NCBI GenBank assembly: GCA_035288385.1 | Contig: DATEAM010000124.1 | Location: 1 to 32,092, forward strand | Length of the DNA stretch: 32,092 bases | Direction: 5' to 3' | Source of the DNA: Thermodesulfobacteriota bacterium | GTDB taxonomy: Bacteria > Desulfobacterota > GWC2-55-46 > JADFVP01 | Shown here: positions 12,179-29,925 of the stretch, one piece after another | Layout of the letters: the number at the start of each line of letters is the position of its first letter | How positions within the stretch are numbered: position 1 is the first letter of the stretch | Made by a program: the position numbers and the translations under genes | The notes under the pieces: model-generated | Databases searched by the model: none | Seen by the model: only the letters and a program-made list of their open reading frames with translations | Told to the model about the DNA's origin: nothing

Positions 12179-13600
12179 CTAAAACCTGTCAGAGACCCTT
12201 TCAAAGCACTCGAAGACTTCCGGGTCAAGGTGCGCTCCAACCGAGCTTCTCATCACACTCATCGCCTCGCCCTTCTTCAGGGCCTTCCTGTAGGACCTGT
12301 CGGAGGTGAGGGCGTCAAAGGTATCTGCTACCGTTATGATCCTCGACGCGAGAGGTATCTCGCCGGCCTTGAGCCCCATGGGGTAACCGGTGCCGTCGAA
12401 GTGCTCGTGGTGGTGGCAGATCCAGTTGGCGATCTTCCCGAACCTGTGTATATGACCTATCATCCTGGCGCCTATCTCGGGGTGCTCGCGCATCTTGCTC
12501 ATCGCCTCGTCGTCGAGTCTCCCCGACTTGTTGAGTATCTCCTCGGGGACACCTATCTTTCCCGTGTCATGGAGAAGGGCCGCGAGCTTTATCCATGAAA
12601 TGGTCTCATCCGGGATATCCATCTCCTTTGCGATACCCACCGCTATCTCGGTCACCCGTTTTGAATGGCCGTAGGTATAGGGGTCCTTGGCGTCGATTGC
12701 GAAGCTGAAGGCCTCGGCGGTCCTGAAGAGCATGTCGCGTATCTCGTCGAAAAGGAGCGCCTTTTTTATCGACACGGCGCACTCCGAGGCTATGCTCGAA
12801 AGGAGTTTTATCTCAGTGGAGTAAAACTCCTCCCCGTTGAGCTTGTCGGTTGCGACAACCGCCCCCATAACGGAGTCCTCCACCACCATGGGTATGATGA
12901 GTATCCTGGTCACCGGGAAGGGAAGGCCCTCGAACCTCCTGTCCCTTGATACGTCGCAGACGGTAATCGCCTCCTTCCTGTCGTAGACCTGTCCCATGAG
13001 CCCGGCGCCTGCGCTCATGGTCATGGTGGAAGCGGTGCTCGAGTCCCTGCCCACCGACACCTTCGGGATAAATAATTTTTTTGACGGTTCTTTGACCTCC
13101 CCGTTGCGAACATAGCAGACGTCGTGCGAGATGTCCGCCATCGGTATCTCCACGACAAGGAGCACGGAGACGTTCGTGGAGGGCACGAGGTTCATGACCT
13201 CGTCGGAAAGCACGGCGCAGACCCTGTCAACGTCGAGCCCCGCTCCAAGGCGCCCGGAGAGCCTCCACATAAGGGATATCTCTTCATAGTTTCTCGCCAC
13301 CTCCCCTGCGAGGCTCTCTATCTCGTATCCCGCATCCACGAGCCTCATCATGTTGTCGGCGATGAAGTCGAGCCTTGGAGCGTTGGGGCCGCTCTCATGC
13401 ATGGCCACGTAACCGAGGTGCGTGTCCCTCATGTCGATGGGACGCACAGCGAGGGTCGAGCCGCGCGCCTTGGGCGGCGACTTCAAGAGAGGCTTTTTAT
13501 CGGTATCAAGGAGAAAAACGGAGCTGCCGAAGCCCTTCGAATACCCGTCGAGCAGCTCCTGTGCCCTCTCTCTTGAAATGTAGTCGAATATCCTGGACAT
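12179..13600 (-). CDS. GAF-domain HD-GYP c-di-GMP phosphodiesterase
   Basis: 473 aa with a central GAF-like region. HD-GYP signatures are HSKRVTEIAV, LLHDTGKIGVPEEIL and HHEHFDGTGYPMGL. Confidence 0.85.
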   Translation of the reverse strand: MSRIFDYISRERAQELLDGYSKGFGSSVFLLDTDKKPLLKSPPKARGSTLAVRPIDMRDTHLGYVAMHESGPNAPRLDFIADNMMRLVDAGYEIESLAGEVARNYEEISLMWRLSGRLGAGLDVDRVCAVLSDEVMNLVPSTNVSVLLVVEIPMADISHDVCYVRNGEVKEPSKKLFIPKVSVGRDSSTASTMTMSAGAGLMGQVYDRKEAITVCDVSRDRRFEGLPFPVTRILIIPMVVEDSVMGAVVATDKLNGEEFYSTEIKLLSSIASECAVSIKKALLFDEIRDMLFRTAEAFSFAIDAKDPYTYGHSKRVTEIAVGIAKEMDIPDETISWIKLAALLHDTGKIGVPEEILNKSGRLDDEAMSKMREHPEIGARMIGHIHRFGKIANWICHHHEHFDGTGYPMGLKAGEIPLASRIITVADTFDALTSDRSYRKALKKGEAMSVMRSSVGAHLDPEVFECFERVSDRF

Positions 13601-13601
13601 C

Positions 13602-15428
13602 TCAACCCTTCTCTCTCAGCATCTCCACCATCTTTTCCAGCCCGCCTCCGTACTGCGTTGTCCCGAGCCCTATGCACCGCATGTCCCTTACCAGTATATT
13701 CAGGGTGAGCACAATCGGTATGTACACTGTGGAGCCGCTGGTGCGAAGCGTTGTAAGGACTGCGTACAGGTCGTCTTTTGGAAAGCTCCCCACTACAATC
13801 AGGTGCACCGGCCTCGTAGAGCCCACGGAATCCGCATCAGGGACTATGGACGTCTCATAGCCCTTCGAGCCCATGAAGAGCTGCAGGTCCCTCGCCTCGT
13901 CGGGTTTGTTCGATATTATCGTTATCCTTCCCGAGTCCCTGTTCAAGACCGCCTTGATAGCCTTCTCTATCTGGTCCTTGTCGAAAGGTTTTGATATGTA
14001 CCCGTTTACGGCGACCTGCGGGCCCGACTTCTCGTCGTTAATCACCGAGACCATGTAAACCGGTATGCCGAGGACGCTCGAGAGCGTCCTTATCTCGCTG
14101 AACTGCTCCTCCCCTTCGAGGTAGCCCGTGATGATCGCATCCGGGTGCCTGAGTCTTGCGAGCTCGACGGCGGTGCGGGTGCTGTTCGCCCCGAGGGTCC
14201 TGTACCCCATGGCCTCGAGGTTCTCCCTCAATATCCTTCTCATCGCCGTGTCGTCCTCGAGGATCATTATCTGCCCCCCCACGAGGTCCACGCCCCTCGT
14301 GGCCATCGCGTCCTCGCGGGCGGCTATTGACTTCTTGTAAAGAGTAAAATAAAAGGTCGAGCCCTTGCCGAGCTGGCTCTCCACCCATATCCTTCCCCTG
14401 TGACCCTCTATAATCTTCTTGCAGATGCTCAGCCCCAGGCCCGAGCCCTTGGCCCTTCCAGCAAGCTCGTCACCTATGCGGTAAAACTCCTCAAAGACCT
14501 TCTCCTTCTCTTCCGGATATATCCCCTCGCCCGTGTCCCTTACGAATACGCGTATCTCCTCCGGCATCTCCTCGGCGCCGGCAGTGATGCCGCCCCTGGA
14601 GGTGAATTTAACGGCGTTGCTCAGGAGGTTCAACATCACCTGAAGTAGCCTGTTCCTGTCCCCCTTTACGAGTGTGAGGTTCCCGGGAAGGTTGGTCTCC
14701 ATGAAAAGGCCCTTGTTCTTCGCCAGCGGCAATATCGTCTTTACCCCGGTCTGAATCACCTCGCCCACGTCCACGTTGTCCATGTGCCACTGCGTCCTGC
14801 CGGAATCGAGCCTCACCACGTCGAGTATCTCGTTTGTGAGCTGCGTAAGCCTCTCGCTCTCCTCGTTTATTATACCGAGAAACTCCTTTCTCGTGTCATC
14901 GTCTATGTCGGAGTAGTTAAGGAGTATCTCGGAAAAGGAACGTATCGAAGAGAGAGGGGAGCGTATCTCATGGGAGATGGAGGAGAGGAAGTGGGTCTTG
15001 TTAACGTCCAGTTCCTTAAGCCGCTCGTACCTCTCCATCATGGAGTCTATCTGCGACTGGAGGTTGGTTATATTCAGGTTAAGGGCGTTGGTGAGGCCGT
15101 GGTAGGTATCGGAGGTCTTCCTGACGCTGTCCTCTTCGCCTTTTATTACCCCGGAAAGATACCCGGAGGCCAGCGCCATGACAAGGAAGGCTGGCACGTT
15201 TTCCCCGACGGCGTAAAAGGGGTATTCATCGCCCACGATAAGGGGAAGTATGGCGTAGAGGGCGCAGAAGGTGAGGGAGGAGAGCAACAGGGAGTTCGGG
15301 TCGAAGAAACGGGTGAGCAGTAGTATCGCCGGGAAGTAGATAAGCCTCAGAGGGCTCTCCACCCCGCCGGTAAGAAAGACCGCCGGAATAAGTCCCGGGA
15401 GAACGAAATAGAAAAATACCTTATTCAT
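13602..15428 (-). CDS. membrane sensor histidine kinase with two C-terminal degenerate receiver-like domains
   Basis: 608 aa with N-terminal hydrophobic helices and the H-box FLSSISHEIRSPLSSI. HATPase_c blocks are LLSNAVKF, DTGEGI and GSGLGLSICK. Two REC-like domains follow (IMILEDD...PDAIITGYLEG...ISKPF and ITIISNKPDE...HLIVVGSFP), and neither has the phospho-acceptor Asp. There is an 8-nt overlap with the upstream receiver gene. Confidence 0.85.
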   Translation of the reverse strand: MNKVFFYFVLPGLIPAVFLTGGVESPLRLIYFPAILLLTRFFDPNSLLLSSLTFCALYAILPLIVGDEYPFYAVGENVPAFLVMALASGYLSGVIKGEEDSVRKTSDTYHGLTNALNLNITNLQSQIDSMMERYERLKELDVNKTHFLSSISHEIRSPLSSIRSFSEILLNYSDIDDDTRKEFLGIINEESERLTQLTNEILDVVRLDSGRTQWHMDNVDVGEVIQTGVKTILPLAKNKGLFMETNLPGNLTLVKGDRNRLLQVMLNLLSNAVKFTSRGGITAGAEEMPEEIRVFVRDTGEGIYPEEKEKVFEEFYRIGDELAGRAKGSGLGLSICKKIIEGHRGRIWVESQLGKGSTFYFTLYKKSIAAREDAMATRGVDLVGGQIMILEDDTAMRRILRENLEAMGYRTLGANSTRTAVELARLRHPDAIITGYLEGEEQFSEIRTLSSVLGIPVYMVSVINDEKSGPQVAVNGYISKPFDKDQIEKAIKAVLNRDSGRITIISNKPDEARDLQLFMGSKGYETSIVPDADSVGSTRPVHLIVVGSFPKDDLYAVLTTLRTSGSTVYIPIVLTLNILVRDMRCIGLGTTQYGGGLEKMVEMLREKG

Positions 15429-15792
15429 TCCTCTCCCCCAGGATGCTCCTTATCCTGGCCACTATCTCCTTGGGACTGAAGGGTTTTGTTAGAAACTCGT
15501 CTGCGCCTTCACGCAGGCCCTGCTCCTTGTCGATCTCCTGACCCTTCGCCGTGAGTATTATCACGTAGCTGTCCTTCAACTCAGGGTCGGCTTTTATCGC
15601 CCTGCAGGTGTTGAACCCGTTCATCTTGGGCATCATGAGGTCGAGAAAGATAATCCTCGGCTTGAGGCTCCGGGCCTTCCTGAGCCCTTCTTCCCCGTCC
15701 CTGGCCACCTCGACCTCGTAGCCTTCCTTCTTGAATACAAAGGAGAGCGAGCGCTGTATGAAAGGTTCGTCGTCAACAACGAGTATGGTCAT
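15421..15792 (-). CDS. single-domain CheY-like response regulator
   Basis: 123 aa with canonical REC residues: VVDDEP, the phospho-acceptor Asp in FLDLMMP, ILTAKG and TKPF. Confidence 0.9.
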   Translation of the reverse strand: MTILVVDDEPFIQRSLSFVFKKEGYEVEVARDGEEGLRKARSLKPRIIFLDLMMPKMNGFNTCRAIKADPELKDSYVIILTAKGQEIDKEQGLREGADEFLTKPFSPKEIVARIRSILGERNE

Positions 15793-15814
15793 CTGTCTCT
15801 CCGCGTTCTAAATG

Positions 15815-17218
15815 CTACATCTCCACGAAATAGTTCTCCCAGGCCTCGGTAACGCCCTCTATCGTCATCTCCGGAGGACGGTTGTGGTAGTGCGCGCTGT
15901 CTATTATGTGGTCGATTATGTCTCTGGGGTGGCAGGCGTTGAGCCTTACTCTGAGCCTCCTGTAGAAGTGGCTCATCAGGTGGTCGAAGACCTCCACCCT
16001 GAAGTCTATCCCGTTGGCGGCGCACACCCTCCTGAATATCTCCTCGTACTCCTGCTCGGTGGGGTGGTTTATCTGTATCTTGTACCTTATCCTCCTCAGG
16101 AAGGCCTCGTCCACGAGCCTCCCAGGCTCTATATTCGTGGCGAAAATGACGAGCTGGTCAAAGGGTATCTCGAACTTCATTCCCGTGTGGAGCGTGAGGA
16201 AGTCCTCGCCCCTCTCCAGAGGCACTATCCACCTGTTAAGGAGGTTCTCGGGGGATATCTGCTGGCGGCCGAAGTCGTCAACGATGAAGACCCCGTTGTT
16301 GGCCTTCATCTGGAGGGGGGCCTCGTAAAACTTGGTCACGGGGTTGAAGTTGAGGTCCAGCATCTTTATCGTCAACTCCCCGCCGGTCATTACCACGGGC
16401 CTCTTTATGTTCACCCATCTCTGGTCCAGGTTGTCCTTCTCGCCCTCCTCCTTGACAGGTATGTGAGTTACGGGGTCGAAGACCGTTATCACCTCTGAGC
16501 CCACGAGAATGGAGTAAGGGATGCAGACGGCGCCGGGCAGGACGTTTCCAATCGTATCGGCTATCGTCGTCTTCCCGTTGCCCGGGGGTCCGTAGAGGAA
16601 GATCGCCCTACCGGAACTCACGGCGGGACCGAGGCGCCTTAGCGTGTCGCTTATGACGAGGTGGGAGAAGGCGTCGGCAATGCGCCTCTCGCTCACGTAT
16701 ATGTGTTTTATCGTCTGGAGCTCGACTATGCTGCGGTAGTCCTCAAGGGGGACGGGGGCCGGGCCGACGTACCTGTTTAGCTCAAGGAGATCTTGCCCCC
16801 TGTGCCTGCCCTTTTCAGTTATGTTGAAGTTGAAGGACTCGCGCATGAACCCGCCGGCGCCCTTTACCTCTATGAACCGGTCTTTCCTCAGAATCTGCAC
16901 CGCGTGGTCTATGATCGCTATGGGGAGCTTTATCCGGACGGCCAGGTCCTTGAGGTTGAACTCCCCGATAAGCAGTATATGCTTCATCACAAGGTCGGTG
17001 ATGAAACTCAACTCCAGGCCCGTCTCAGTTACGCCCTTCGGCGTATAGGGGTGACGCTTGAGGAACCGCTCCAGATCATCGGGGGCTATGTGATGAAGGG
17101 CCACGAGGTTCGTCCCAAGCCTCCCTCCCCGGAGTTTCTGCCTCTCGAGGGCCTCATCGAGCTGCTGCTCGTCTATGACCTTCTCTCTTATTAGTCTCTG
17201 TCCAAGATATTCCTTCAT
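15815..17218 (-). CDS. AAA+ ATPase with N-terminal MshEN-like (T2SSE_N) putative c-di-GMP-binding domain and a central winged-helix-like region
   Basis: Walker A LYGPPGNGKTT, Walker B VFIVDDFG, an Arg-finger region LRRIRYKI, and a classic AAA lid. The N-terminus holds two 24-residue MshEN-type motifs, YLGQRLIREKVIDEQQLDEALERQ and RLGTNLVALHHIAPDDLERFLKRH, separated by 5 residues. The ORF track start is 17236; the ATG at 17218 (MKEYLGQ) is favoured. Confidence 0.85.
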   Translation of the reverse strand: MKEYLGQRLIREKVIDEQQLDEALERQKLRGGRLGTNLVALHHIAPDDLERFLKRHPYTPKGVTETGLELSFITDLVMKHILLIGEFNLKDLAVRIKLPIAIIDHAVQILRKDRFIEVKGAGGFMRESFNFNITEKGRHRGQDLLELNRYVGPAPVPLEDYRSIVELQTIKHIYVSERRIADAFSHLVISDTLRRLGPAVSSGRAIFLYGPPGNGKTTIADTIGNVLPGAVCIPYSILVGSEVITVFDPVTHIPVKEEGEKDNLDQRWVNIKRPVVMTGGELTIKMLDLNFNPVTKFYEAPLQMKANNGVFIVDDFGRQQISPENLLNRWIVPLERGEDFLTLHTGMKFEIPFDQLVIFATNIEPGRLVDEAFLRRIRYKIQINHPTEQEYEEIFRRVCAANGIDFRVEVFDHLMSHFYRRLRVRLNACHPRDIIDHIIDSAHYHNRPPEMTIEGVTEAWENYFVEM

Positions 17219-17240
17219 GGCTGCGCCCCGTAACATCTTT

Positions 17241-19763
17241 CTACTGTAGCTTGTCCTCCCGCCAGACCAGTCCCGTCTCGTCGTTGAACTTTGTTACGGT
17301 ATCCGGGCCATCGACCATACCCGTGAATTGATCTTCGTCGTCCCAGAAAACACCCTCGGGTACGAGAAACCTTATTATAACCTTTCCGGAGGATAAGTCC
17401 ATCTCGTACTCTTTGACCCTCTCCCGGACCCTGGTCTCGTAGAGACTGAAGACGAGCCTTATCCTTCCCGGGTCTCCGGTGTTTTCCACGACGAACTCAT
17501 AGGCAGCGTGCTCGGCCCTCGGCACAGTAAAGACCCTTACCGTCCAGGGTTCTTTGTCCACGGTCAGATCCCCTTTCTCTTCCTTCGCCTCCACAACGCT
17601 CTTGCCTTTTCCCTCTGACGAACTCATGGGGTGCGGCTTCTTGTAAAGGGTGTTTTTAACTCGGACTGGCGGCAGGGGGCCTTCCATGAAAAACTCTATC
17701 TTTAAGTCCACCGGGAAAAAGGCGCCCCTTTTTTTCTTCTCCTCGTCCTCGGCGATTTTCCCTTCCCGCCCCTTCATGCCGGCGAGGACGGAGCTTACCT
17801 CGTCGTGCGTCTTGGTATAGTCCCCCTCATGAACGACTATCAATTTCTGAGGCGTATGTATCTCGGCGACGACTTCCGGGAACCCGGCATCGGTGGGTTC
17901 CTTGCCGGCTTCCCTCCGCCCCGGGCCCGCACCTTCCGGTCCCGTCTCCCCCTCGGGGGTATGTATGGAGGCGACGATGGTATCCTCTGCGCCGCCTCGC
18001 TCCAGGACCTTCAACTCTCCCCTCTTGCCCGGCATGTACTCGGTAAGGGGCTGTATCTCTTTTTCGGGCATCTCTATGGACGCAACTATCGTATCCGCCC
18101 CGATATCGGCCTCTTCGGACCTGCCTTCAATGTCATCTTCTTTTAAATCCCGCCGGCCCGGGAGGTCTGTGCCCTCGGGGGTCTCTATTGACGCGACTAT
18201 TGTCTCGATAGCCTGGACGGGCTCGACGACCTTTTCAGCGGGCCTTTCAAAAGCCCCTTCTTTCGTCAACAGGGACTCTTTTGACACCTCTGGCTGCGCG
18301 GTAGAGGCTACAGCCATGGGAGCGGGCAGGTCCGACGTTTTTTCGGCCTCTTTGTCAGGCCCTTCCACTTCTTCGGCAGCCCCGTGCGAATCTATTTTAT
18401 CTTGCACGGCGAGGTCGGTCAGGCCTATCATATCGAGGTTTTCGAGGCCGTAAAAAATCCCGGGCTTCCTGGCCTCGAGCCCGTCGGTATTTAGAGCGAG
18501 CCTTGCTGGAAGGCTTACAGCTTGAGAGCGGGCCTCTTCATCCGGCCCCTCTTCACCGACAATGCAGGCCACGGGTTCGTCGAGCTCCGCATAGGAGTCT
18601 TGCTTATCCATGTAGCCGCCCCTGGCGTCCTTTACAGCCTCAAGGGCGCTGTAAAGGGGGAGGGTTCCCGAATAGAGGGCAGGGGCTTCGGTCATACCCT
18701 CCTCCACGGATTTCGCGGCGGATGGGCCCCCGGCACTTTTCTTTATCTCCTCCTTTTCGGACCTCTCGAGATCATCGACGGCAGACTCTTTCTCCTTTAT
18801 CCCGGGCGGCTTTATTACCCTCTTCTTGTCCACCCACCTCACCACAACGGTCCTGTCTTCACCGTCAAGGGGTTCGAGTTTTTTCTCTATGACCCCGCTC
18901 GATATTATGCTGACGCCGCTACCCACGAAGTCGGCAACCGCCCCTCCGGAGGTCTTTTCATTGACGGGGGGACGCCCCTCGGGCGTCTTCTCTCCGGCGA
19001 CGGGTCTTTCCGTTACCTTTATATCCCCTACCTCCTTCTCCGGACTGACTCCCGGTATATACACCCCGTTCTTCTCGACCCCGGAGGACTCTTCCCTGTA
19101 CAACCCGGCCATCCTCTCCTTACCGCCGTAAGGTTCTTCCGTCGGTACCTTTTCTTTTATGGCGCTATCCTTATGAGGACCGGTCCCGGCAGGCCTTGCA
19201 GCGCCCTGGGCGACGGCCTCTGACAAGGGCGGTTTCTCTACGAGCGGAAAAGACTTGCCGGCGGCCTGGGGAGCGTCCTTTTTAGCAGGCGGAGGAGGGA
19301 TTTTCGCCTCCCCACTCTTGCCTTCGGGCCGGAAAGAGCCGGCTGCCGCAGCTTTTTTAACCTCTTTCGCCTCTTTTACCGGTGGTTTGGCGATTCTGGG
19401 CCCTGCGGTCTTTCCAGGCGGGTTTGAGGGTTTTAGTTCCCGGGGCTTTTCCTTTTTTATATCCCCGAGCGCCCCGGTGGCCTCGGACTTCTCCTTCAGG
19501 GCCCTCTTTGCCGGTATAGTACCCACGGGGTTTTTTACGTCCCTTTCCTCGACGGGGGGCTCTTTCTCCTCCATCCGGGGTAATGCCGCCGTCTTCCTCT
19601 CGCCTTCCTTGAGATAGACAAAATACATCTCGAAAGCGCTCGTATAATTCATCCCCTTAATAAGGGGGAGCGTGAGGAACAGGTACAGGACCACAAAGTG
19701 GAGGAACAGAGAGTACAGGAGGCAGGAAGTTATGGGATTTCTCCCGGAAAGAGACGTCTTCAT
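17241..19763 (-). CDS. 840-aa orphan protein: N-terminal TM anchor, long Pro/Lys/Glu-rich spacer, four TIVASI(E/H)TPE repeats, unassigned beta-rich C-terminal domain
   Basis: Long ORF with an ATG start, ending 4 nt before the AAA+ ORF. The single N-terminal helix CLLYSLFLHFVVLYLFLTL contains an S-x3-H pattern like TonB anchors. I recognised no known C-terminal domain. Confidence 0.8.
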   Translation of the reverse strand: MKTSLSGRNPITSCLLYSLFLHFVVLYLFLTLPLIKGMNYTSAFEMYFVYLKEGERKTAALPRMEEKEPPVEERDVKNPVGTIPAKRALKEKSEATGALGDIKKEKPRELKPSNPPGKTAGPRIAKPPVKEAKEVKKAAAAGSFRPEGKSGEAKIPPPPAKKDAPQAAGKSFPLVEKPPLSEAVAQGAARPAGTGPHKDSAIKEKVPTEEPYGGKERMAGLYREESSGVEKNGVYIPGVSPEKEVGDIKVTERPVAGEKTPEGRPPVNEKTSGGAVADFVGSGVSIISSGVIEKKLEPLDGEDRTVVVRWVDKKRVIKPPGIKEKESAVDDLERSEKEEIKKSAGGPSAAKSVEEGMTEAPALYSGTLPLYSALEAVKDARGGYMDKQDSYAELDEPVACIVGEEGPDEEARSQAVSLPARLALNTDGLEARKPGIFYGLENLDMIGLTDLAVQDKIDSHGAAEEVEGPDKEAEKTSDLPAPMAVASTAQPEVSKESLLTKEGAFERPAEKVVEPVQAIETIVASIETPEGTDLPGRRDLKEDDIEGRSEEADIGADTIVASIEMPEKEIQPLTEYMPGKRGELKVLERGGAEDTIVASIHTPEGETGPEGAGPGRREAGKEPTDAGFPEVVAEIHTPQKLIVVHEGDYTKTHDEVSSVLAGMKGREGKIAEDEEKKKRGAFFPVDLKIEFFMEGPLPPVRVKNTLYKKPHPMSSSEGKGKSVVEAKEEKGDLTVDKEPWTVRVFTVPRAEHAAYEFVVENTGDPGRIRLVFSLYETRVRERVKEYEMDLSSGKVIIRFLVPEGVFWDDEDQFTGMVDGPDTVTKFNDETGLVWREDKLQ

Positions 19764-19823: not shown

Positions 19824-20183
19824 TCATGACGCAAAGACCAGTCTGTCTCCCACTTCGATCCCGGACTCCCCCACGGTACCCGCGGGTAGCTCCAGAACGG
19901 TCCTTGCCCTGAAGACGATTTTAGAGAACCTGTTCGGCTGTATGTTCTCTACAATATCTACTATTACGTTCTCGGAATCAAGGAATAAAACGTCTATGGG
20001 GAATTTCATCCCCACCGTGTGTATCCCCCTGCACGGTTTTATCCAGAGGGACTCGCCTTTTGGGAAGCTATCTTTGCCGAGCAGCCCCTTCATCCTTTTA
20101 AAGAGGCCGTCCGCAACCGTGACCGTCGTGGATACGAATCTTCCGTTCCTTGAATTGCGGGCCGATAGGGAGTCAGAAGACAT
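19824..20183 (-). CDS. DUF192 (COG1430) domain protein
   Basis: DUF192-like blocks are VTVADGLFKRMKGLLGK, LWIKPCRGIHTVGMKFPIDVLFLD and TVLELPAGT. The ORF track starts at a TTG at 20216; the ATG at 20183 is favoured. Confidence 0.8.
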   Translation of the reverse strand: MSSDSLSARNSRNGRFVSTTVTVADGLFKRMKGLLGKDSFPKGESLWIKPCRGIHTVGMKFPIDVLFLDSENVIVDIVENIQPNRFSKIVFRARTVLELPAGTVGESGIEVGDRLVFAS

Positions 20184-20294
20184 TGAAAAACCCGGATTCT
20201 TAAAACCCCCCGGCAAGCATGACTTACCCGGGGGGTTCCGTTAAAAGTGCAAAGGTGAGGGCTTTCTGGATATCCTCGTCAGCCCCACCCATGG

Positions 20295-22409: not shown

Positions 22410-23713
22410 TTCAACGCCTCGTACTCGAATATACCCGAGGGCACTTCCACCCCGGTGACCTTTATCTTGTCCATGCTCCTGGGCCTTACCCCGGTGGGAC
22501 GGAAGTGGCCGAGGACCTCTCCGTTGGGACCCATCCCGATCCTTTCGAACATGAAGATGTCCTGCATGACGATGGTATTGCCCTCGAGTCCCGTTATCTC
22601 CGATACGCTCATTATCTTGCGTTTACCGTCGGAGAGCCTGCTCAGCTGAACCACTATGTGTATGGCGGAGGATACCTGTTCGCGTATCGCCCTATCGGGA
22701 AGGTCCATCCCGGCCATGAGCACCATGGTCTCAAGCCGCATCATGGCGTCCCTCGTGGTGTTGGCGTGTATGGTGGACAGAGAGCCGTCGTGGCCCGTGT
22801 TCATCGCCTGGAGCATATCGAGGGCCTCGGAACCCCTCACCTCGCCGACGATAATCCTGTCGGGCCTCATCCTCAGGGCGTTTCTGACGAGGTCCCTCTG
22901 GGTTACCTCGCCCCTGCCCTCTATGTTCGGTGGACGGGTCTCGAGCCTCACCACGTGGTCCTGCTTCAATTGCAGCTCGGCGGAGTCCTCGATGGTGATG
23001 ATCCTCTCCGTAGTGGGTATGTACTCGGAGAGGATGTTCAGCAACGTCGTCTTCCCGGAGCCCGAGCCACCGGATATGAGCATGTTGAGCCTTGCCTTGA
23101 TGCAGCCCATGAGAAAGGCGCCGATGTCCTTGTTGATGGAGCCGAAGTTGAGGATGTCGTTCATCTTCAGGGGCGTAACCCCGAACCGCCTTATGGAGAG
23201 CACGGGGCCGTCGAGGGCGAGGGGGGGGATGATGGCGTTGACCCTTGAGCCGTCAGGGAGCCTGGCGTCGACGTAGGGAGAAGACTCGTCCACGCGTCTG
23301 CCCACCTTGGAGACTATCCTGTCTATTATCTGGAGAAGGTGGTTGTCGTCCCTGAAGATCATGTCCACCTTCTTCAGTTTTCCGAACTTCTCTATGTAGA
23401 CCTGGTCGTAGCGGTTGACCAGTATGTCGGATATCTCGGGGTCGGCAAGAAGGGGCTCGAGGGGGCCGAGGCCGAAGGTCTCGTGCTGGATGTCCGTTAT
23501 GAGGCTCTCGCGCTCGGCAAAGCTCAGGGGCACCCCTTCGTCGGCGATGAGGCCCTCGAGGATCCTGACTATCTCCTTTCTGAGTATCTCCGTCTCAATG
23601 AGGTTGATATTCGTCAGGTCGAGGCTCTCGATGAGTTTCCTGTGGATCCTCGTCTTGAGACTCTGGTACTTATCCAGCTTTGAAACAGGGACCTCTCTTG
23701 TCATGTCTGCCAT
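22406..23713 (-). CDS. cpaF: Tad pilus secretion ATPase CpaF/TadA
   Basis: 435 aa with Walker [13 protein letters not shown], the Asp box/Walker B region [12 protein letters not shown], the His box [13 protein letters not shown], and a typical CpaF N-terminal domain. Confidence 0.92.
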
Positions 23714-23737: not shown

Positions 23738-24874
23738 TTAACCGTGTATTTTTATAATCTCTTTCGATATATCCTCCATGGCGGTGTTCACCCCGGAGCG
23801 CGGGTTCTCCTCGCTTATCGGTATGCCCTTGTTGAGGCACCTCATGGCGAGGTCATACTCGTTGGGTATGGAAAAAGCTATGGAGCGCCCGAGGACCTTC
23901 TCGGCGTCCTCAATCCTTATGTCGCCCTTCTTTATGTACCTGTTTACGATAATCTTTACCCTGTCCCTGAGGCCGAGCTTGTCGAAATACTTAAGATACC
24001 TCTGCAGGTGCCTTATCCCGGGCAGGCTCATGATGAGGACCACCATTATGGAGTCCGACATCTTTATGGCCTCTATGGTCCTCTCGTCTATGACGGCGCC
24101 CGTGTCGATTATTATGTAGTCGAACATGGTCTTGAGGAGCTCGATGAGCTTCGTTATGTCGGACCCGGGGATTCTCGCCCCCTCATCGACGTTCTGGGGC
24201 TCGGCGAGGACGTGGACCCCTGAGGGGTGTTTGGTTATGACGCCCTTCATGAAGCTCTCGTCGAGGCGGCTCATGTTGGTGGTCACGTCGCTTATCGTGT
24301 AGGTCGATTTTATATTGAGGAAGGTGGTCACGTCCCCGGCGTCGAGGTCCAGGTCGACGATGACGGTGGGTTTGCCCGTGACCTTGTGGACGTTGGTGGC
24401 GAGGTTTACCGCCAGGGTCGTAACCCCCACTCCGCCCTTGGGGCTGAAGAGCGTATAGACCTTGCCGACCTCGGCCTCCGGGGCCGGTTTGGTTATCCAC
24501 AGGCGCCCCATCTTCTGGAGGGCCGATGAGAGGTCCTCCTCGGTAATGGGCCTCAGGATGTACTCCGTGGCCCCGGCCTTCATGACCTTGAGGATGGTAT
24601 CGGCCGACCTGTCGGAGGAAGTTACGAATATCGACGTCCTGGGGAACCTTTCAAGGATGGAGTGTACCTTTCCTACGGCGTCGTCGATACCGTCGGTGAG
24701 CTCCATTATGACGACGTTGGGCCTCTTCTTGTGCACCATCTCGATGCCGCTCTCGAAGTTGGAGGCCACGCCCTCGATGGAGGCGTGGTCTCCGAGGTGC
24801 TGTATGAAAGATACCATCGTCTTGACGGAGTCGGTGTCGCTGTCGATTATCACTATCGCTATGTTGGGGTTCAT
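23738..24874 (-). CDS. cpaE: CpaE/TadZ: atypical receiver domain fused to a ParA/MinD-type ATPase
   Basis: 378 aa. The N-terminal REC-like domain has Glu at the acceptor position (VVIMELTD). The deviant Walker A is FSPKGGVGVTTLAVNLA. Confidence 0.88.
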   Translation of the reverse strand: MNPNIAIVIIDSDTDSVKTMVSFIQHLGDHASIEGVASNFESGIEMVHKKRPNVVIMELTDGIDDAVGKVHSILERFPRTSIFVTSSDRSADTILKVMKAGATEYILRPITEEDLSSALQKMGRLWITKPAPEAEVGKVYTLFSPKGGVGVTTLAVNLATNVHKVTGKPTVIVDLDLDAGDVTTFLNIKSTYTISDVTTNMSRLDESFMKGVITKHPSGVHVLAEPQNVDEGARIPGSDITKLIELLKTMFDYIIIDTGAVIDERTIEAIKMSDSIMVVLIMSLPGIRHLQRYLKYFDKLGLRDRVKIIVNRYIKKGDIRIEDAEKVLGRSIAFSIPNEYDLAMRCLNKGIPISEENPRSGVNTAMEDISKEIIKIHG

Positions 24875-24902: not shown

Positions 24903-26240
24903 TTAAAATACGAGCACCACTTTCCGGGAGAGGAAGTCCGGAACCGGGTCGCAGTCCACGCATTGGATGTTCTTTATACGGACCGCAAAGGTGATGTTCG
25001 GGTCAAGCTCTTCCGAAAGGTCCGCCGGCTCAAGGCGCTCGTAGGTGCAACCGTTGTCCGGGTTGCAGGAGCACTCTCCCTGCGGACTGTTTCCTTTCGC
25101 CGCTACCTCGGTAATCGTTATCAGCGCCCATTGCCGGATTGTATGGGTTTCATTTTGTATTCCCGTGGGACACTCGTCGAGTATGGGGGCTATGACCTCC
25201 CACTCGGCGACGCGGTCGGACGTCTCGTCGCCGCATATTTCAGTCGCCCCTCCCGTGCATACCTTGTTGTCTCTGTCGTACCTGGGGTTTATAAAGGCGC
25301 CCCTGAACACCCTGCTGGTTTTTGCATCAACTCCATTGGTGGTCGCGACCTCTCCAAGGCATTCGCCCCCGACCTTCCTTTCGCATATAAAGTCACGCAG
25401 GGCGGTACTGCTCGTGCTTTGTTGATCTTCATCGAGAGTTGTCCATGCAATCGCCCTGGCAGGGTCTTCGTATTCAGTAGCGGTCCCTGACGTGTAAAAT
25501 ATCAACCCGTCTTCGCCGAGGTCAAGGAGGCACGAATCCGTACACAACGCTATGGGCGCCTCGGCCCTTGCCGGCCTCGAGGCTATGGCGGCCCTCTGCA
25601 CTCCCATCGTGGGCTTTAGTATAAGGAAACCGAAGAAGAGGTCTACCTCTCCCCCGTTGTACGTTGCTTCAGCGGTCCTCCTCGTCCGGGCGAGGACGGC
25701 GTTTATCGGTGTGCCTTCCGGGTCAAGGGAGTCCCCGTCCCAGAACCCCACCACTATGTCTTTGGTAGGGTCGTTGGCCTGGTTAAGTTCCGACGGAGGA
25801 GAGTCGCAGTCGGGGCCCGAGTCCACGAGATAGACGCTCCTGCCCACGGCGGCGTTCCGGCAGGCGAACTTCCATGCCTCCTGCCTGGCCTCGATCTGGC
25901 TGGGGTCGTCTGTGTCTTCGAGCTTGGAGGCCCCTGCGAGGGCGGCGGCGTCCGCGGCGTTCTGGAGCTGGCCCCTTACATAGTACATGAAGGCGAAGTC
26001 TATCAATACGAAGAAAAAGATGAGGAATAAGGCGAGGACCCCTACGACGAGGACAACGGCCTGCCCGCTATGCCCGGGACCGCCTTTGCGCCCCATCTGT
26101 CCAGCCTGCCGCTCCACTCCCCCGAGCACCACCTCTCCCCCTTGTCCTGTCCGCCCCACGCGCCCCGTCTCTCCCCTGCCCCCCTCTTGCTTCTCAGCGT
26201 ACTGGGAAGAAAGGCTATCAGTTCTCCTGGGCCGTATCAT
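24903..26240 (-). CDS. tadG: TadG-like pilus-associated protein with Cys-rich C-terminal region
   Basis: The TadE/G-like N-terminus is GQAVVLVVGVLALFLIFFFVLIDFAFMYYVRGQLQNAADAAALAGA. The extracytoplasmic part contains 14 Cys. The start is uncertain: 26240 (GGGGGAAG upstream, 23-nt overlap with cpaC) or the ATG at 26096. Confidence 0.75.
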   Translation of the reverse strand: MIRPRRTDSLSSQYAEKQEGGRGETGRVGRTGQGGEVVLGGVERQAGQMGRKGGPGHSGQAVVLVVGVLALFLIFFFVLIDFAFMYYVRGQLQNAADAAALAGASKLEDTDDPSQIEARQEAWKFACRNAAVGRSVYLVDSGPDCDSPPSELNQANDPTKDIVVGFWDGDSLDPEGTPINAVLARTRRTAEATYNGGEVDLFFGFLILKPTMGVQRAAIASRPARAEAPIALCTDSCLLDLGEDGLIFYTSGTATEYEDPARAIAWTTLDEDQQSTSSTALRDFICERKVGGECLGEVATTNGVDAKTSRVFRGAFINPRYDRDNKVCTGGATEICGDETSDRVAEWEVIAPILDECPTGIQNETHTIRQWALITITEVAAKGNSPQGECSCNPDNGCTYERLEPADLSEELDPNITFAVRIKNIQCVDCDPVPDFLSRKVVLVF

Positions 26241-27591
26241 CTGCTTCCCCCTGGGGTGTCCCCTGAGTGCCGTCCGTCTGCTCTGTGCTCTTTTTAGAGG
26301 TCTTCGGTACGGGTATCCACTGGAACTCCATCTTTTCCTCAGGCGTTGGAGAGGCTTCCCCGGGAAGCTCGGGCCTCACGCCCGGCGCTATCGGCTTTAC
26401 GAGCGAAGGGGTTATGAAGAAGGCGAGCTCCGTGGTCTCGAGCTCGTCTCTCGTGGTGCGGAAGACCGCGCCGAGGATCGGGATGTCGCCGAGCAAGGGG
26501 ATCTTGGAGATGTTCTTTCTCATCTCCTCGTTCAGGAGCCCGGCGAGTATGAGGCTTTCATGCTCCTTCAGGTCTACGCTCGTTGAGACCTGGCGGGTGT
26601 CTATCTCCGGGGCTATGGCGCCCTGGAAGCTCAGGAACTGTACGACGTTGCTCACCTCGGCCGGGTCTATCTTGAGCCTTATTATCCCGTCTTCGAGGAC
26701 CTCGGGTTTGAAGTTGAGCTTTATGCCCACCTCCTCGAATGTTATGGAAATGGTGGAGTCAGCCCCCACGCCCCGGACCACCTGAACGGGGATCCTCGAC
26801 CCTGCGAGGAACTCGCCCTCCTCGCCGCTCCTGACTACGAGGTTGGGTTCAGCGAGGACCTTGGCGAGCCCCTTGTCGGAAAGCGCCCTCAGGAAAGCCG
26901 CCACCCCGCTCGTGAAATGGGAAACCCCTATCTGGGGGACGATGTCGCCGAAGTCATAACCGTCTATGCCGGGCGAGTCTCCCGTGAGGACGCCGTCTGG
27001 AGTGGCGAACAGGCCCGCGGAGGTGCCCTCGGCTTCCGAGCCCTTTATAAGGAAGCTAAGACCGAGCTCCATTAGCTTCGTCCTGTCGATCTGCGCCACC
27101 TTCACCTCGAGGAGCACCTGCTGCGGTTCCTTGATCTTCAAGAGGTTTATAACCTTTGCCCCGTATGCCGAGCTGAGGGTCTCTATCCTTTTGATCGTCT
27201 CTGTGTTCTTAATCGTACCCTTTAAAACGATGGTGGTTCCCACAAGCGAGACGTCCACCTCGTCTTCCGGGGCGATATCCTTAAGCTTCTGCCTGAGATC
27301 CGTTACGTCTCCCGCCACGAAGAGGTCGAAAAAGGTCCTCTTGCCCTCCTCGTTCCATATGATCAGGCTCGTTGCGCCTACCTTCTTGCCGTTGAGAAGG
27401 ATCTCGGTGGGAGAGATCAGGATGAGTTCAGCCACGGAGGGGTCTGATATGGATACCCTTTTGCTGTTCTCCTTAAGGGTAACGACCGTGGACTTGCCCA
27501 CGCTCACCTCAACGGGTATTGCGGCCATCGCCGTCGTAGAGATTAAAAAGGCGCACAAGACGAAGAACGTATATAATACTCTTCTCGTCAT
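26218..27591 (-). CDS. cpaC: Tad pilus outer-membrane secretin CpaC/RcpA
   Basis: 457 aa with a signal peptide and a CpaC-type N-terminal pilus-formation domain (GKSTVVTLKENSKRVSISDPSVAEL). The secretin C-domain shows VLAEPNLVVRSGEEGEFLAG and IPLLGDIPILGAVFR. Confidence 0.9.
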   Translation of the reverse strand: MTRRVLYTFFVLCAFLISTTAMAAIPVEVSVGKSTVVTLKENSKRVSISDPSVAELILISPTEILLNGKKVGATSLIIWNEEGKRTFFDLFVAGDVTDLRQKLKDIAPEDEVDVSLVGTTIVLKGTIKNTETIKRIETLSSAYGAKVINLLKIKEPQQVLLEVKVAQIDRTKLMELGLSFLIKGSEAEGTSAGLFATPDGVLTGDSPGIDGYDFGDIVPQIGVSHFTSGVAAFLRALSDKGLAKVLAEPNLVVRSGEEGEFLAGSRIPVQVVRGVGADSTISITFEEVGIKLNFKPEVLEDGIIRLKIDPAEVSNVVQFLSFQGAIAPEIDTRQVSTSVDLKEHESLILAGLLNEEMRKNISKIPLLGDIPILGAVFRTTRDELETTELAFFITPSLVKPIAPGVRPELPGEASPTPEEKMEFQWIPVPKTSKKSTEQTDGTQGTPQGEADDTAQEN

Positions 27592-27630: not shown

Positions 27631-28518
27631 CTATTGCTGAACTTTGAACGTCTCTATCTGCTTGTTGCCGTCGCGCAGGACCTCCACATTGATGGTCCTC
27701 GCACCGGCCGCCTTCGTGGTGACGGGGCCCTTCTTTACGGCCCTTTTACCCGCGGCCTTCGCAACCCTCGGACTTGGCCCCGCCGGCCCCGCCGGCGCCG
27801 CTCCTATGACCCTGCTGATGGTGGCGCCTCCCGAGGCAAAAACGTCCTTATCGCCGTGCTTCCTCAGAAGGAGCTGGAGCCTTCCCTCCACGCTCGCCAG
27901 CGCGAGCCTCTCGGCCTCATCGGGTGTGACGTCGAGGGTTACGGTGGGGACTATTACGGGTTTGCCTTCCGCTTCCTGCTCTATTATCTGGCCCGTGGCC
28001 AGGACGGGGATGTTCTGGAGTATTATCTTGCTAAGCGGACCCCGCCTGCCTTCGGGGTTCTTGTGCGTCAGGACCACGTCCACCATGTTGCCCGGGGTAA
28101 TGAACCCGGCTACACCAGAGACCTGGTCAACGCCCACGGTCATGGCCCTGTGCCCCTCGGGGATCTTGTAGGTGAGGATCCCTGGGGCGCCTCCCCTCGG
28201 AACGAGTTTCGCCTCGGTGATCGGGTCACCGGACTGTATGCCCTGGAGCGCGACCCTGCCCACGGCGCCCGCCTCGGTCAAAACCGCCCTCTCGGGGACG
28301 TTGGCCTTGGGCCAGGTTACGACCTTGATCTGGGTCCTCTCTATGGTGGTCCCTACGGGTATGTCCTTGGAGGCCACGACGACCTGTTCGGTGGCCACCG
28401 CCTCCTTTACTATCTCTTGCTGTTCCCTCAGATAATTGTACAGGAGCCAGCTCGCGATCGCCGCAATCGCAACGGCGACCACGCCTATAACGACAACCGC
28501 CCTCGGTTTAGCTGCCAT
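27631..28518 (-). CDS. cpaB: Flp pilus assembly protein CpaB/RcpC (SAF domain)
   Basis: 295 aa with an N-terminal anchor and a SAF-like segment VVVASKDIPVGTTIERTQIKVVTWP. An RcpC-like region is followed by a basic Ala/Pro/Lys tail. Confidence 0.85.
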   Translation of the reverse strand: MAAKPRAVVVIGVVAVAIAAIASWLLYNYLREQQEIVKEAVATEQVVVASKDIPVGTTIERTQIKVVTWPKANVPERAVLTEAGAVGRVALQGIQSGDPITEAKLVPRGGAPGILTYKIPEGHRAMTVGVDQVSGVAGFITPGNMVDVVLTHKNPEGRRGPLSKIILQNIPVLATGQIIEQEAEGKPVIVPTVTLDVTPDEAERLALASVEGRLQLLLRKHGDKDVFASGGATISRVIGAAPAGPAGPSPRVAKAAGKRAVKKGPVTTKAAGARTINVEVLRDGNKQIETFKVQQ

Positions 28519-28579
28519 GATTACCTCCCTTTATCCTCCCTCGCTAAGAAACCAACTTCAGGACCTCAGACCTCGTCTC

Positions 28580-29020
28580 TCATATCTCATACCTCATGGA
28601 GGTTATCGAGGTCAAGAACATCCCCGCTGAGTCGCACTCAAGCGCGGGGTCGTCCGAAATAAAGCCAAGCTCCCACCTGACCACGGGGATAAAGCAGTCC
28701 CTTACGGTGACCATTACCATATCGCCTGCGTCAGGGTCGCCGCCTGAGCTGTTCAAGTCTATAATGTTTACGAAAACCTCGGCATCGGGTCTCCCGAGGG
28801 TGTCACGCACGGTTTGTACCACGTCAGGGTCGTTTTCCTCAAGGTCTGTCTGGACTACGGCGAACCTGGCCCCGACCCTGGCGGCGTTGTTAAGAGAGTT
28901 CTTCAGATGCCATGCCCTCGCCACCTCTGCGATGAGCAAAAATATCGCCAGAAGGATGATGAGCATGAACAGGGTCTCTATAACGGTCTGACCCCTTCTG
29001 TCATTAAAGGTGTTTCTCAT
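28580..29020 (-). CDS. tadE: TadE-like pseudopilin
   Basis: The N-terminus MRNTFNDRRGQTVIETLFMLIILLAIFLLIAEVARAW carries a G/QTVIE prepilin-peptidase-type site. The ORF track starts at a TTG at 29071; the ATG at 29020 is favoured. Confidence 0.8.
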   Translation of the reverse strand: MRNTFNDRRGQTVIETLFMLIILLAIFLLIAEVARAWHLKNSLNNAARVGARFAVVQTDLEENDPDVVQTVRDTLGRPDAEVFVNIIDLNSSGGDPDAGDMVMVTVRDCFIPVVRWELGFISDDPALECDSAGMFLTSITSMRYEI

Positions 29021-29185
29021 TTTCACGCCTACGCGCCTCCACGGACCACTGTCGCCCATGCTCCCTGGCAATCATGTGATCCATGGAGGCCGTATTGTTT
29101 TAGAGTGTCCAGGGTCTTTTCCAGGAGCCCTGCATTAAGTATAGCAGAAACTGGAGTGGTTGCGACGTAAGGCCTGGACCTGTAA

Positions 29186-29368
29186 TCAAGACCCGCCAGG
29201 TGGAGCAAACTTGAAGTTGGTGAAGTCTTCGCCGATATTGGTGCCGGCGTCTTCCACACCCTTCTTCATGGTGCCTATCTGGACGGCGAAGAATATCACG
29301 GCGCTCAGTAGTATTATGACGAGCAGATATTCGAGAACCGTCTGGCCCTTTTGCTCTCTGACGTTCAT
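29186..29368 (-). CDS. flp: Flp-family pilin, paralogue 2
   Basis: It contains KG/QTVLEYLLVIILLSAVIFFAV, the Flp G/xxxxEY motif plus a hydrophobic helix. The start is uncertain: the ATG at 29368 gives an 8-aa leader, and the GTG at 29419 gives a 25-aa leader that aligns with the paralogue 1 leader. Confidence 0.75.
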   Translation of the reverse strand: MNVREQKGQTVLEYLLVIILLSAVIFFAVQIGTMKKGVEDAGTNIGEDFTNFKFAPPGGS

Positions 29369-29467
29369 CTTACGCACAACCCCCAGCGAAAATCCAGCTC
29401 CTTGTTCTCTCTTCAGCACACTGGTGTCGCAAGGACCGGGTACCAGCTTGCGTACCGACGGTAACGC

Positions 29468-29671
29468 CTATGTGATCGGCACGTCCACGTTCTGGAGAGC
29501 TGTCCCTATCTCGTTAGAAGCGGCACTGATCCCCGATGCCACGCCGCCGCTGTTGAAGGCGATCACGAGCACCAGGGCTATGAGTACCAACACGAGGATG
29601 TACTCTATGACGGTCTGACCTTTTTCACTCCTGAGATTGAGCCTTCCGAACAACTCCATTACTGTCTTCAT
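29468..29671 (-). CDS. flp: Flp-family pilin, paralogue 1 (probable major pilin)
   Basis: The 67-aa product is MKTVMELFGRLNLRSEKG/QTVIEYILVLVLIALVLVIAF. An AAGGAGGT Shine-Dalgarno lies 7 nt upstream of the ATG. It is the first gene after the consensus promoter. Confidence 0.88.
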   Translation of the reverse strand: MKTVMELFGRLNLRSEKGQTVIEYILVLVLIALVLVIAFNSGGVASGISAASNEIGTALQNVDVPIT

Positions 29672-29752
29672 CTGACTTACCTCCTTGGTTTTGGTTATGG
29701 ATTTTAGACCAGTTAAACGCCCCTTTATGCCACAAGAAAAACTTTGACACTG

Positions 29753-29781
29753 ATTATAGGCACCCGAATCACCGTTGTCAA
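29753..29781 (-). promoter_or_regulatory. consensus sigma70 promoter upstream of flp
   Basis: The minus strand reads TTGACA-acggtgattcgggtgcc(17)-TATAAT, a 12/12 match to the consensus with optimal spacing. It lies ~80 nt upstream of the flp ATG. An imperfect inverted repeat GTTGTAACTTCTTGACAAC (29774-29792) overlaps the -35. Confidence 0.6.
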
Positions 29782-29909
29782 GAAGTTACAACAATAAATT
29801 TAACACCTTAATCTATCGTGGAAAGGGCCTTGAAAACCGGATTCAACCGCCCGCGAGGTACCGTCTCGGCGTTTAGATGCCCCTTCAGTTCCTCTTGGAC
29901 AGATAAAGA

Positions 29910-29925
29910 TGCAACACCCGTGCCA
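29910..29925 (-). promoter_or_regulatory. consensus sigma54 (RpoN) -24/-12 promoter element
   Basis: The minus strand reads TTGGCACGGGTGTTGCAT, which fully matches YTGGCACGrNNNTTGCW. It is intergenic, points toward flp, and lies ~240 nt upstream of the flp ATG. Confidence 0.5.

Follow-up and report, generated by a model that had tools for sequence, protein, structure and literature searches.

A Tad pilus operon extended by a recurrent accessory block that includes a candidate c-di-GMP-responsive ATPase

How does cyclic di-guanosine monophosphate (c-di-GMP) act on the Tad pilus machine? Tad pili serve surface attachment in many bacteria, and the route from c-di-GMP to them is poorly defined because the Tad motor is without the MshEN domain that makes pili of the MshE/PilB type responsive to this nucleotide. 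MshEN domains are high-affinity c-di-GMP receptors, whereas HD-GYP domains hydrolyse c-di-GMP. The question is raised here by a contig of a Thermodesulfobacteriota bacterium (DATEAM010000124.1, assembly GCA_035288385.1), whose 32,092 nt were analysed as a whole and are referred to below as the window. Positions 12179 to 29925 hold a core Tad (type IVc) pilus operon, complete in its core and lengthened at its 3' end by an accessory block, and all of its genes and elements described below lie on the minus strand. An initial annotation, made from the letters and open reading frames (ORFs) alone, had treated the tail past tadC as a single six-gene c-di-GMP control module composed of a DUF192 protein, an 840-aa protein (p840), an ATPase with MshEN and AAA+ features, a receiver, a histidine kinase and an HD-GYP protein. 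Comparison with relatives leads to a different picture of the tail. The novelty lies in a Tad locus whose accessory module recurs in relatives and had not been described.

Three layers of conservation past tadC

The tail is not one unit, and three layers of differing conservation can be told apart. The first consists of a membrane micro-protein of about 30 aa and the DUF192 protein, both widespread companions of tadC. The second is p840 and the MshEN-AAA+ ATPase, a tightly coupled gene pair. The third, made up of the receiver (REC), a membrane hybrid histidine kinase (HK) and a GAF-HD-GYP protein, is a lineage-specific sensor set. Counts were made in three samples: 80 DUF192 relatives from many phyla, the p840 family at 13 genome and 80 metagenome loci found by pattern scans, and the ATPase at 80 genome loci (44-67% identity). 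Loci of relatives are given L-numbers, L099 being the window's own contig.

The DUF192 gene (19824-20216, likely ATG at 20183) matches Pfam DUF192 (PF02643) at 71.2 bits against a cutoff of 27. For this family the Tad count was limited to loci of at least 9 kb, and Tad genes were found within 6 kb in 44 of these 56 loci; cpaF-tadB-tadC lies directly upstream in 25 of the 44, and cpaB-cpaC 3-4 kb downstream in 19. That Tad operons can have DUF192 as their 3'-terminal gene has been observed independently in Firmicutes (Bulleidia; PMC12786226). The 280-nt spacer between tadC and DUF192 (20217-20497; 281 nt when counted from tadC at 20498 to the longest DUF192 ORF at 20216) had been singled out as the sole exception among the short gaps of the operon. 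It is not empty, and contains both a micro-ORF and a terminator-like hairpin. The micro-ORF (20384-20476; 30 codons, GTG start, VDILTWFKIVIAVQAGMVYSRTGRREQGRM) was recognized by homology to the micro-ORF that follows tadC in relatives, where the consensus is DFNT.VLLVIAVELALIY.(K/R)LG.K and where the gene stands directly after tadC behind a strong Shine-Dalgarno sequence, encodes a single transmembrane (TM) segment in about 27-35 aa, and is unannotated. A motif scan located it after tadC in 13 other loci (L083, L084, L090, L095, L103, L121, L124, L143, L167, L179, L180, L183 and L187), including Geomonas and a Bacteroidetes metagenome-assembled genome. The copy in the window is divergent (E to Q, L to G) yet recognizable, and the micro-protein may be an overlooked Tad component.

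In the second layer, the genes of p840 (17241-19763) and of the ATPase (15815-17236) are 4 nt apart in the window by gap arithmetic. The ATPase starts within 200 nt downstream of p840 in 56 of 81 eligible loci, and in three more a gene for a family 2 glycosyltransferase (GT2) stands between the two. Among the 24 p840 loci whose upstream flank reaches 9 kb or more, tadC and/or DUF192 is found upstream on the same strand in 14; most of the other ten show arrays of three to six ORFs of about 500-570 aa upstream, some of which match the membrane proteins that intervene between DUF192 and p840 elsewhere, and tad may lie beyond the flank in these loci. The order tadC-DUF192-(x)-p840-ATPase is kept at 35-65% protein identity in Nitrospirota, Thermodesulfobacteriota and Geobacteraceae. 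Outside the p840 clade, Tad genes occur within 10 kb of ATPase homologues in 12 of the 80 loci and in at least three arrangements: convergent after genes for tetratricopeptide repeat (TPR) proteins in Nitrosomonas, divergent in L009, L010 and L044 (the latter two with a gene for a prepilin-peptidase-like membrane protein by the tad genes), and on the same strand, 5-7 kb past tadC, in L036 and L075. The recurrence beside tad loci that the initial annotation had proposed for its tail genes was thus found for DUF192, p840 and the ATPase, in related and in some unrelated lineages. Linkage extends to type IV filament machines of another kind: in L091, L128, L131 and L147 the p840-ATPase pair lies directly upstream of a GspE-type ATPase gene and not downstream of Tad. 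Three of these loci have an operon resembling those of type II secretion systems (T2SS) or type IV pili, which in L091 (9098-18617) encodes GspE with MshEN, GspF, pseudopilins, GspK and a PilM/N fusion, with the same order in L128 and L131.

Parts of the block are also present in cultured bacteria usable for genetics, namely Geomonas (tad-DUF192-p840) and Nitrosomonas (tad by the ATPase). In the Geomonas loci of the Geobacteraceae (L181, L182, L187), tad-DUF192 is followed a few kb downstream by a p840-family gene with no adjacent ATPase. A further locus, L192, noted beside L194, has DUF192 and, no more than 350 nt on, an ATPase 76% identical to that of the window.

The third layer recurs far less. 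REC-HK-HD-GYP follows the ATPase in five of 46 loci and HD-GYP in three of 24, all among the closest relatives; the complete set travels with the p840-ATPase pair in L088, L125 and L133, and in L093 and L122 REC-HK is seen up to the contig end. The single six-gene module is not borne out by these counts.

The p840-ATPase pair and its possible role

The ATPase has 473 aa, with MshEN motifs at residues 10-62, a conserved middle region, a canonical Walker A motif GPPGNGKT (216) and a Walker B motif VDDFGRQ (319). Residues 11-61 match the NCBIfam model NF053729 ('c-di-GMP motif, MshE-related') at 57.6 bits against a cutoff of 38, and the N-domain structure of MshE (5htl) is matched by phmmer at E = 1.8e-4. 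MshEN is defined by two 24-residue motifs, [RKPN]hGxxhhxx[GAS]hhxxxxhxxxhxx[QNKRYWST], joined by five residues. This 24-5-24 spacing is exact in the window's protein (residues 10-33, then 39-62), and 17 of the 22 diagnostic positions fit; the ATPases of relatives match the second motif better than the window's copy. MshEN domains are known in combination with REC and HD-GYP domains, and their affinities for c-di-GMP are in the nM-uM range (PMC5013675).

The AAA+ assignment is made because of the Walker motifs and of weak P-loop matches; the models of Pfam itself stay below threshold, the AAA model reaching 20.2 against a cutoff of 21.2 on the P-loop only. Matches in the PDB are limited to the P-loop and C-terminal segments of Cdc48/spastin and to the N-domain of MshE. 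The Walker B motif, with Asp-Asp in place of Asp-Glu and followed by FGRQ (residues 319-325), is invariant in 37 homologues, with ATN and FLRRIRYK downstream, and the DDFGRQ...ATN...FLRR pattern hints at a MoxR/McrB-like flavour or an unusual ATPase chemistry. Neither Pfam nor NCBIfam gives a match to a peptidoglycan-binding domain, and no TM-like stretch is seen by eye, no TM predictor having been applied. Weak partial matches of the ATPase to IetA/IteA (38-39 bits, against an NCBIfam cutoff of 510 bits) speak for a proposal in which it and its neighbours would serve in defence against phages, as an Iet-type or other AAA+-based system. This proposal is effectively refuted: the matches, including the weak IetA/TRIP13 AAA similarity given by PADLOC, span generic AAA+ segments only, an IetS-like protease or other defence partner is not present, p840 and DUF192 have no PADLOC matches, and the setting is one of pilus and housekeeping genes, not of defence islands.

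Its partner, p840, has an N-terminal TM helix with an S-x3-H motif (YSLFLH in the window), a low-complexity region rich in Pro, Glu and Lys, and a C-terminal all-beta domain of about 160 aa ending in PEGVFWDDEDQFTG..TKFN..TGLVW. Between residues ~520 and ~640 the low-complexity region repeats TIVASI(E/H)(T/M)PE three times and has VVAEIHTPQK as a fourth, degenerate copy; in relatives the C-domain comes after a motif of similar form, I(L/H)TPE. The protein had been described as an orphan, which it is not: exhaustive HMMER searches with its C-terminal segment returned 365 representative clusters at E <= 1e-3, of which 138 reach E <= 1e-10. Word-indexed searches had returned only the protein itself with the full-length query, two proteins with the C-domain query and seven with a profile, hence the use of exhaustive HMMER and of pattern scans. 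Conservation is confined to the last ~160 residues, where the family shares the invariant signature PEAVFWDDEDYFTG..E..D..TKFN..TGLVWKEEK, and this domain is always at the extreme C-terminus, after 100-900 variable residues. Of the members that exceed 350 aa, about three quarters carry S-x3-H in their first 45 residues. An AlphaFold model of the C-domain from a single sequence was useless (predicted local distance difference test, pLDDT, of 41); with an alignment of nine sequences the model is all-beta, with pLDDT 77 and a predicted template modelling score of 0.67. Foldseek searches of the PDB with this model gave nothing significant (best E = 0.02, template modelling score <= 0.44), and p840 has no match in Pfam, NCBIfam or PADLOC.

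The layout of p840 recalls that of TonB, TolA and ExeB, by motif and composition only. With TonB and TolA it shares the N-terminal TM helix with Ser-x3-His, the stretch rich in Pro, Glu and Lys, and a C-terminal globular domain; it differs from them in having no TonB_C or TolA domain or match to a hidden Markov model, and in the absence of ExbBD/TolQR genes nearby. The nearest precedent in function is the pair of ExeA, an AAA ATPase, and the TonB-like ExeB, which assembles the T2SS secretin and is required for this (PMC4098917). As in the ExeA/ExeB (GspA/GspB) systems of Aeromonas and Vibrio T2SS, a gene for a putative AAA-type ATPase and one for a predicted bitopic, TonB-like inner-membrane protein are paired in the window and linked to a type IV filament system that contains a secretin (PMC4098917). 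However, no sequence homology between the two pairs was found with Pfam, NCBIfam or an N-terminal profile; the window's ATPase has MshEN and is without a TM or peptidoglycan-binding domain, and p840 is 3-4 times larger than ExeB, with an unrelated C-terminal domain, so that the likeness is one of speculative function. With the ATPases MshE, PilB, PilF and GspE, the window's enzyme has in common two 24-residue motifs with a five-residue spacer at the extreme N-terminus and a location in a type IV filament locus (PMC5013675, PMC11656802). It differs in that its ATPase domain is a divergent AAA+ (GPPGNGKT; DDFGRQ) and not a T2SSE motor, that it is separate from CpaF, and that it is a putative binder with five motif deviations.

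The favoured reading, to which we give about an even chance, is that p840 and the ATPase form an accessory pair, probably c-di-GMP-responsive, that acts on the envelope machine of Tad, possibly in the manner of ExeA/ExeB. Gene content, domain and motif assignments and the synteny counts are direct results; from sequence and synteny we infer this function, and with it c-di-GMP binding, interaction between the ATPase and its partner, membrane topology, the Tad target and co-transcription. c-di-GMP on the MshEN module would switch the AAA+ ATPase, which, with or through the membrane-anchored p840, would promote or gate the Tad envelope machine, either as it assembles or as it works. In this scheme p840 would be a bitopic inner-membrane protein with an anchor in the style of TonB/ExeB, a long spacer rich in Pro, Glu and Lys, and a novel C-terminal beta-sandwich domain, and the ATPase would be a soluble protein. 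Tad would gain a c-di-GMP receptor in trans, because its bifunctional CpaF motor has no MshEN domain: none was found by Pfam, and the T2SSE match of CpaF is confined to residues 81-360. The GAF-HD-GYP protein would lower the local c-di-GMP pool on GAF input, perhaps also on that of the kinase/receiver pair. That the locus has no pilotin gene could, as a speculation, fit an ExeA/ExeB-like role.

Several observations weigh against this reading. Pfam MshEN (PF05157) gives no match to the ATPase, and the five deviating positions (Y at position 1 and K at position 10 of motif 1; H at positions 10, 11 and 24 of motif 2) place a Tyr at the equivalent of R9 and His-His in motif 2 where relatives have Gly-(Tyr/Phe), with Gln kept; R9 and Q32 have been reported as pivotal for c-di-GMP binding (PMC12943098). 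With its Asp-Asp Walker B motif the enzyme may hydrolyse ATP slowly or not at all. Homology of p840 to TonB or GspB was considered and rejected: its N-terminal profile found nothing in the PDB or Pfam, there was no TonB_C or GspB match in Pfam or NCBIfam, and the C-domain had no structural neighbour. If p840 does have the topology of TonB, only about 15 residues would face the cytoplasmic ATPase. Of the 81 p840-family loci, 22 have no adjacent ATPase, mostly in the most distant members, and Geobacteraceae hold p840 and ATPase genes unlinked. Moreover, unrelated housekeeping genes surround most of the MshEN-AAA+ homologues, which come from Desulfuromonadales, Gamma- and Zetaproteobacteria and many Nitrosomonas, so that the ATPase need not be pilus-specific. 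The usual neighbours, read by eye, are DinG-like, DnaE, phosphoenolpyruvate (PEP) carboxylase, ClpB-like and lipoate genes. Conserved downstream partners of the ATPase in Desulfuromonadales and Gammaproteobacteria were looked for and dismissed, the large genes there being a DinG-like helicase, DnaE and PEP carboxylase by sequence reading.

Candidate glycosyltransferases, often present in the block of relatives, also count against the accessory pair and are the basis of the main rival. Between DUF192 and p840, relatives (L083-L092, L103, L106, L110-L112, L118, L132-L134) have one to six ORFs of about 430-580 aa, and those examined encode polytopic membrane proteins; the one of L088 ends in TPRs and contains an FHFDD motif. 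A GT2 gene is present in L094 and L097, either separating p840 from the ATPase or immediately behind p840, and a gene of about 245 aa often follows the ATPase. The block past tadC might be mainly a periplasmic glycosylation or surface-glycoprotein system, in which membrane enzymes of GT-C type and a GT2 enzyme would modify either the Flp pilin or p840 within its low-complexity stretch; c-di-GMP dependence would come from the MshEN-AAA+ ATPase, as it does from MshEN in the glycosyltransferase NfrB, and the linkage to Tad would reflect a shared programme of adhesion or biofilm formation and no part in the pilus machine as such. The one to six polytopic proteins of about 500-570 aa, some with TPRs and an FHFDD loop, the GT2 and ~245-aa genes, and a weak NCBIfam similarity of the MshEN segment to NfrB all speak for it. 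It is nonetheless unlikely: all of these transferase genes are missing from the window, which keeps DUF192-p840-ATPase, p840 members stay by tadC with no intervening genes in L140, L145 and L151, and the ~540-aa proteins have no glycosyltransferase domain in Pfam, their GT-C call being a reading of the sequence by eye.

A wider form of the favoured reading is held more tentatively. The p840-ATPase pair could be an unrecognized two-protein, c-di-GMP-gated assembly or activation module for type IV filament machines, in most cases Tad and in a few T2SS-like ones, similar to ExeA/ExeB in working and unrelated to them in sequence, with DUF192 and the micro-protein as further overlooked Tad components; we regard this as possible and rather doubtful. 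The initial annotation knew of no Tad locus of this composition, and no such description was found in the literature searched: none of the papers listed combined the terms MshEN and Tad, and the p840-ATPase pair is absent from the Caulobacter Tad parts list, the PilB-cofactor review and the MshEN paper. An ATPase that is conserved beside Tad genes and has an MshEN motif would be a concrete candidate for a c-di-GMP receptor. Three families now have a genomic home by tadC, as candidate accessory Tad parts, in Nitrospirota, Thermodesulfobacteriota, Geobacteraceae, Acidobacteriota and others: DUF192, the family of the p840 C-domain (365 clusters) and the ~30-aa micro-protein.

Sensor genes and the boundary after tadC

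The stand-alone CheY-like receiver (15421-15792; Pfam Response_reg, 107 bits) has the canonical acceptor Asp. The kinase gene (13602-15428), which overlaps it, encodes a membrane hybrid histidine kinase with the order TM, HisKA, HATPase_c, degenerate REC and an extra C-terminal region, as given by Pfam and NCBIfam. Its own receiver (residues ~387-492) has no phospho-acceptor Asp (PDAIITGYL), and residues 500-608, a region of about 110 aa with no family match, are possibly a second degenerate receiver. The stand-alone receiver is the likely phospho-acceptor. The GAF-HD-GYP protein (12179-13600), a predicted c-di-GMP phosphodiesterase, matches HD_5 at 148.7 bits, and both its HD motif (LLHDTGK) and its HHExxDGxGYP motif (HHEHFDGTGYP) are intact.

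A signal chain from kinase and receiver to HD-GYP and on to the ATPase had been proposed. Its first step has no architectural support, the input domain of the HD-GYP protein being GAF and not a receiver and the kinase's own receiver being without an acceptor Asp. Of the local c-di-GMP module on Tad, what stands is the recurrence of DUF192, p840 and the ATPase beside Tad, the MshEN-type motif above the NCBIfam cutoff and the intact HD-GYP motifs; the linear circuit and the unity of the six genes do not. A two-component system and a c-di-GMP-degrading enzyme beside pilus genes are also features of RpfG-type HD-GYP proteins and of two-component systems at pilus loci. The window differs from these in the GAF input of its HD-GYP protein, where RpfG types have a receiver, and in its regulator, which is a single CheY-like domain with no DNA-binding output. 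PprAB is a two-component system in the flp-tad locus of P. aeruginosa.

The hairpin of the spacer follows tadC. This GC-rich element (20204-20237) has perfect arms of 10 bp followed by UUUU, folds at -27.7 kcal/mol (z = -3.1) and resembles a terminator or attenuator. It alone stands out, the fold of the whole spacer being unremarkable (z = -1.4). A G-rich stretch with direct repeats of 16-nt periodicity (20283-20401; GGGGCGGATGT twice and CGGGGCTGTGCCAA twice) sits between the micro-ORF and the hairpin, and no Rfam family was found in the spacer at gathering or permissive thresholds. A hairpin is present between the micro-ORF and DUF192 in five of seven relatives (L084, L085, L088, L090 and L092); in L088 it forms a canonical terminator (-31 kcal/mol, seven Ts), in L092 it has a TTTT run, and L095 has only a short GC stem ahead of a T-run. 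Here and in relatives, the hairpin may split or attenuate transcription past the Tad core, which again counts against the favoured reading.

In a further rival, adjacency in the window would be largely incidental: the Tad operon would end at this hairpin, the ATPase would serve c-di-GMP signalling in general with a client other than the pilus, and REC-HK-HD-GYP would be an independent signalling cassette that lies downstream by chance in this lineage. The recurrence of a post-tadC hairpin with a U-run speaks for it. The absence of tad genes within 10 kb of 68 of the 80 ATPase homologues, and the presence of the sensor set in only five of 46 loci, point in the same direction. Set against this are the order tadC-DUF192-(x)-p840-ATPase, kept across three lineages despite 35-65% identity, the origin of the ATPase-Tad adjacency in several orientations, and the co-orientation of all genes with short gaps between them. 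Furthermore, the chance of a Tad locus lying within 10 kb of a random gene was put at about 1%, a rough estimate from locus and genome sizes. Altogether, incidental adjacency is considered quite improbable, and the accessory pair on the Tad machine remains the favoured reading.

The Tad core and its surroundings

The operon is an unbroken chain of ORFs from 29781 to 12179, as shown by the ORF listing and gap arithmetic, which agrees with the minus-strand run from flp (29671) to the GAF-HD-GYP gene (12179) described at the outset. The initial annotation was also right about the 4-nt overlap of cpaF and tadB, the 8-nt overlap of the receiver and kinase genes and the single nucleotide between the kinase and HD-GYP genes, and its domain assignments were upheld by Pfam and NCBIfam profile searches. 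The remaining gaps are of 16-61 nt, with 99 and 165 nt at the pilin genes if flp2 and tadE start at their internal ATG codons.

Upstream of flp1 lies a sigma-70-type promoter consensus, TTGACA-17-TATAAT, with 12 of 12 positions matching (29753-29781). The first gene, flp1 (29468-29671), encodes a Flp prepilin with EKGQTVIEY that matches Pfam Flp_Fap below its cutoff (29.3 bits against 32.2); flp2 (29186-29419, likely ATG at 29368) encodes a second Flp-type prepilin with QKGQTVLEY, assigned by its motif and with no Pfam match. Both have the prepilin motif KGQTV(L/I)EY and with it the G/xxxxEY processing motif of Tad. They are followed by a tadE-like pseudopilin gene (28580-29071, likely ATG at 29020; Pfam TadE), cpaB/rcpC (27631-28518; RcpC and SAF), the secretin gene cpaC/rcpA (26218-27591; Secretin and T2SS-T3SS_pil_N), a tadG-like pseudopilin gene (24903-26240; Tad/TadE) and cpaE/tadZ (23738-24874), whose product has a receiver-like N-terminus and a ParA/MinD-type ATPase by REC and ParA-like matches. 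The motor ATPase gene cpaF/tadA (22406-23713; T2SSE, 226 bits) and the platform genes tadB (21438-22409) and tadC (20498-21421), both matching T2SSF, complete the core. Pfam scores are above cutoff for CpaF/TadA, the two T2SSF proteins, the secretin, RcpC/CpaB, TadZ/CpaE and TadE/G.

Flp prepilins, TadE/G, RcpC/CpaB, secretin, TadZ/CpaE, a single CpaF/TadA and TadB/TadC in one co-oriented operon are shared with the tad locus of Aggregatibacter, the cpa locus of Caulobacter and the flp-rcp-tad locus of Pseudomonas. Unlike these, the window is without prepilin peptidase, the TadD/CpaD pilotin, CpaI and RcpB; conversely, the micro-ORF, DUF192, the p840 family, the MshEN-AAA+ ATPase and REC-HK-HD-GYP are not in the Caulobacter Tad parts list. 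No ORF for the prepilin peptidase TadV/CpaA or the pilotin TadD/CpaD was found between the tRNA-Pro gene and 12179, nor elsewhere in the window, and these genes may be located elsewhere in the genome. An A24-like membrane protein adjoins the tad genes in L010 and L044.

Beyond 12179 the strand switches with a cupredoxin gene, and positions 203-11022 are occupied by housekeeping and respiratory genes unrelated to the operon. Among them, a minus-strand cluster at 203-5276, also unrelated to the finding, codes for a multi-haem cytochrome c that has an EB_dh domain, for a further cytochrome c, for a protein of 172 aa that gave no match, and for one of 635 aa with only a partial match to cytochrome bd subunit I. 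On the other side, immediately upstream of the flp promoter, positions 29992-31831 hold the tRNA-Pro(CGG) gene (30029-30105, minus strand) and a ClC chloride-channel gene.

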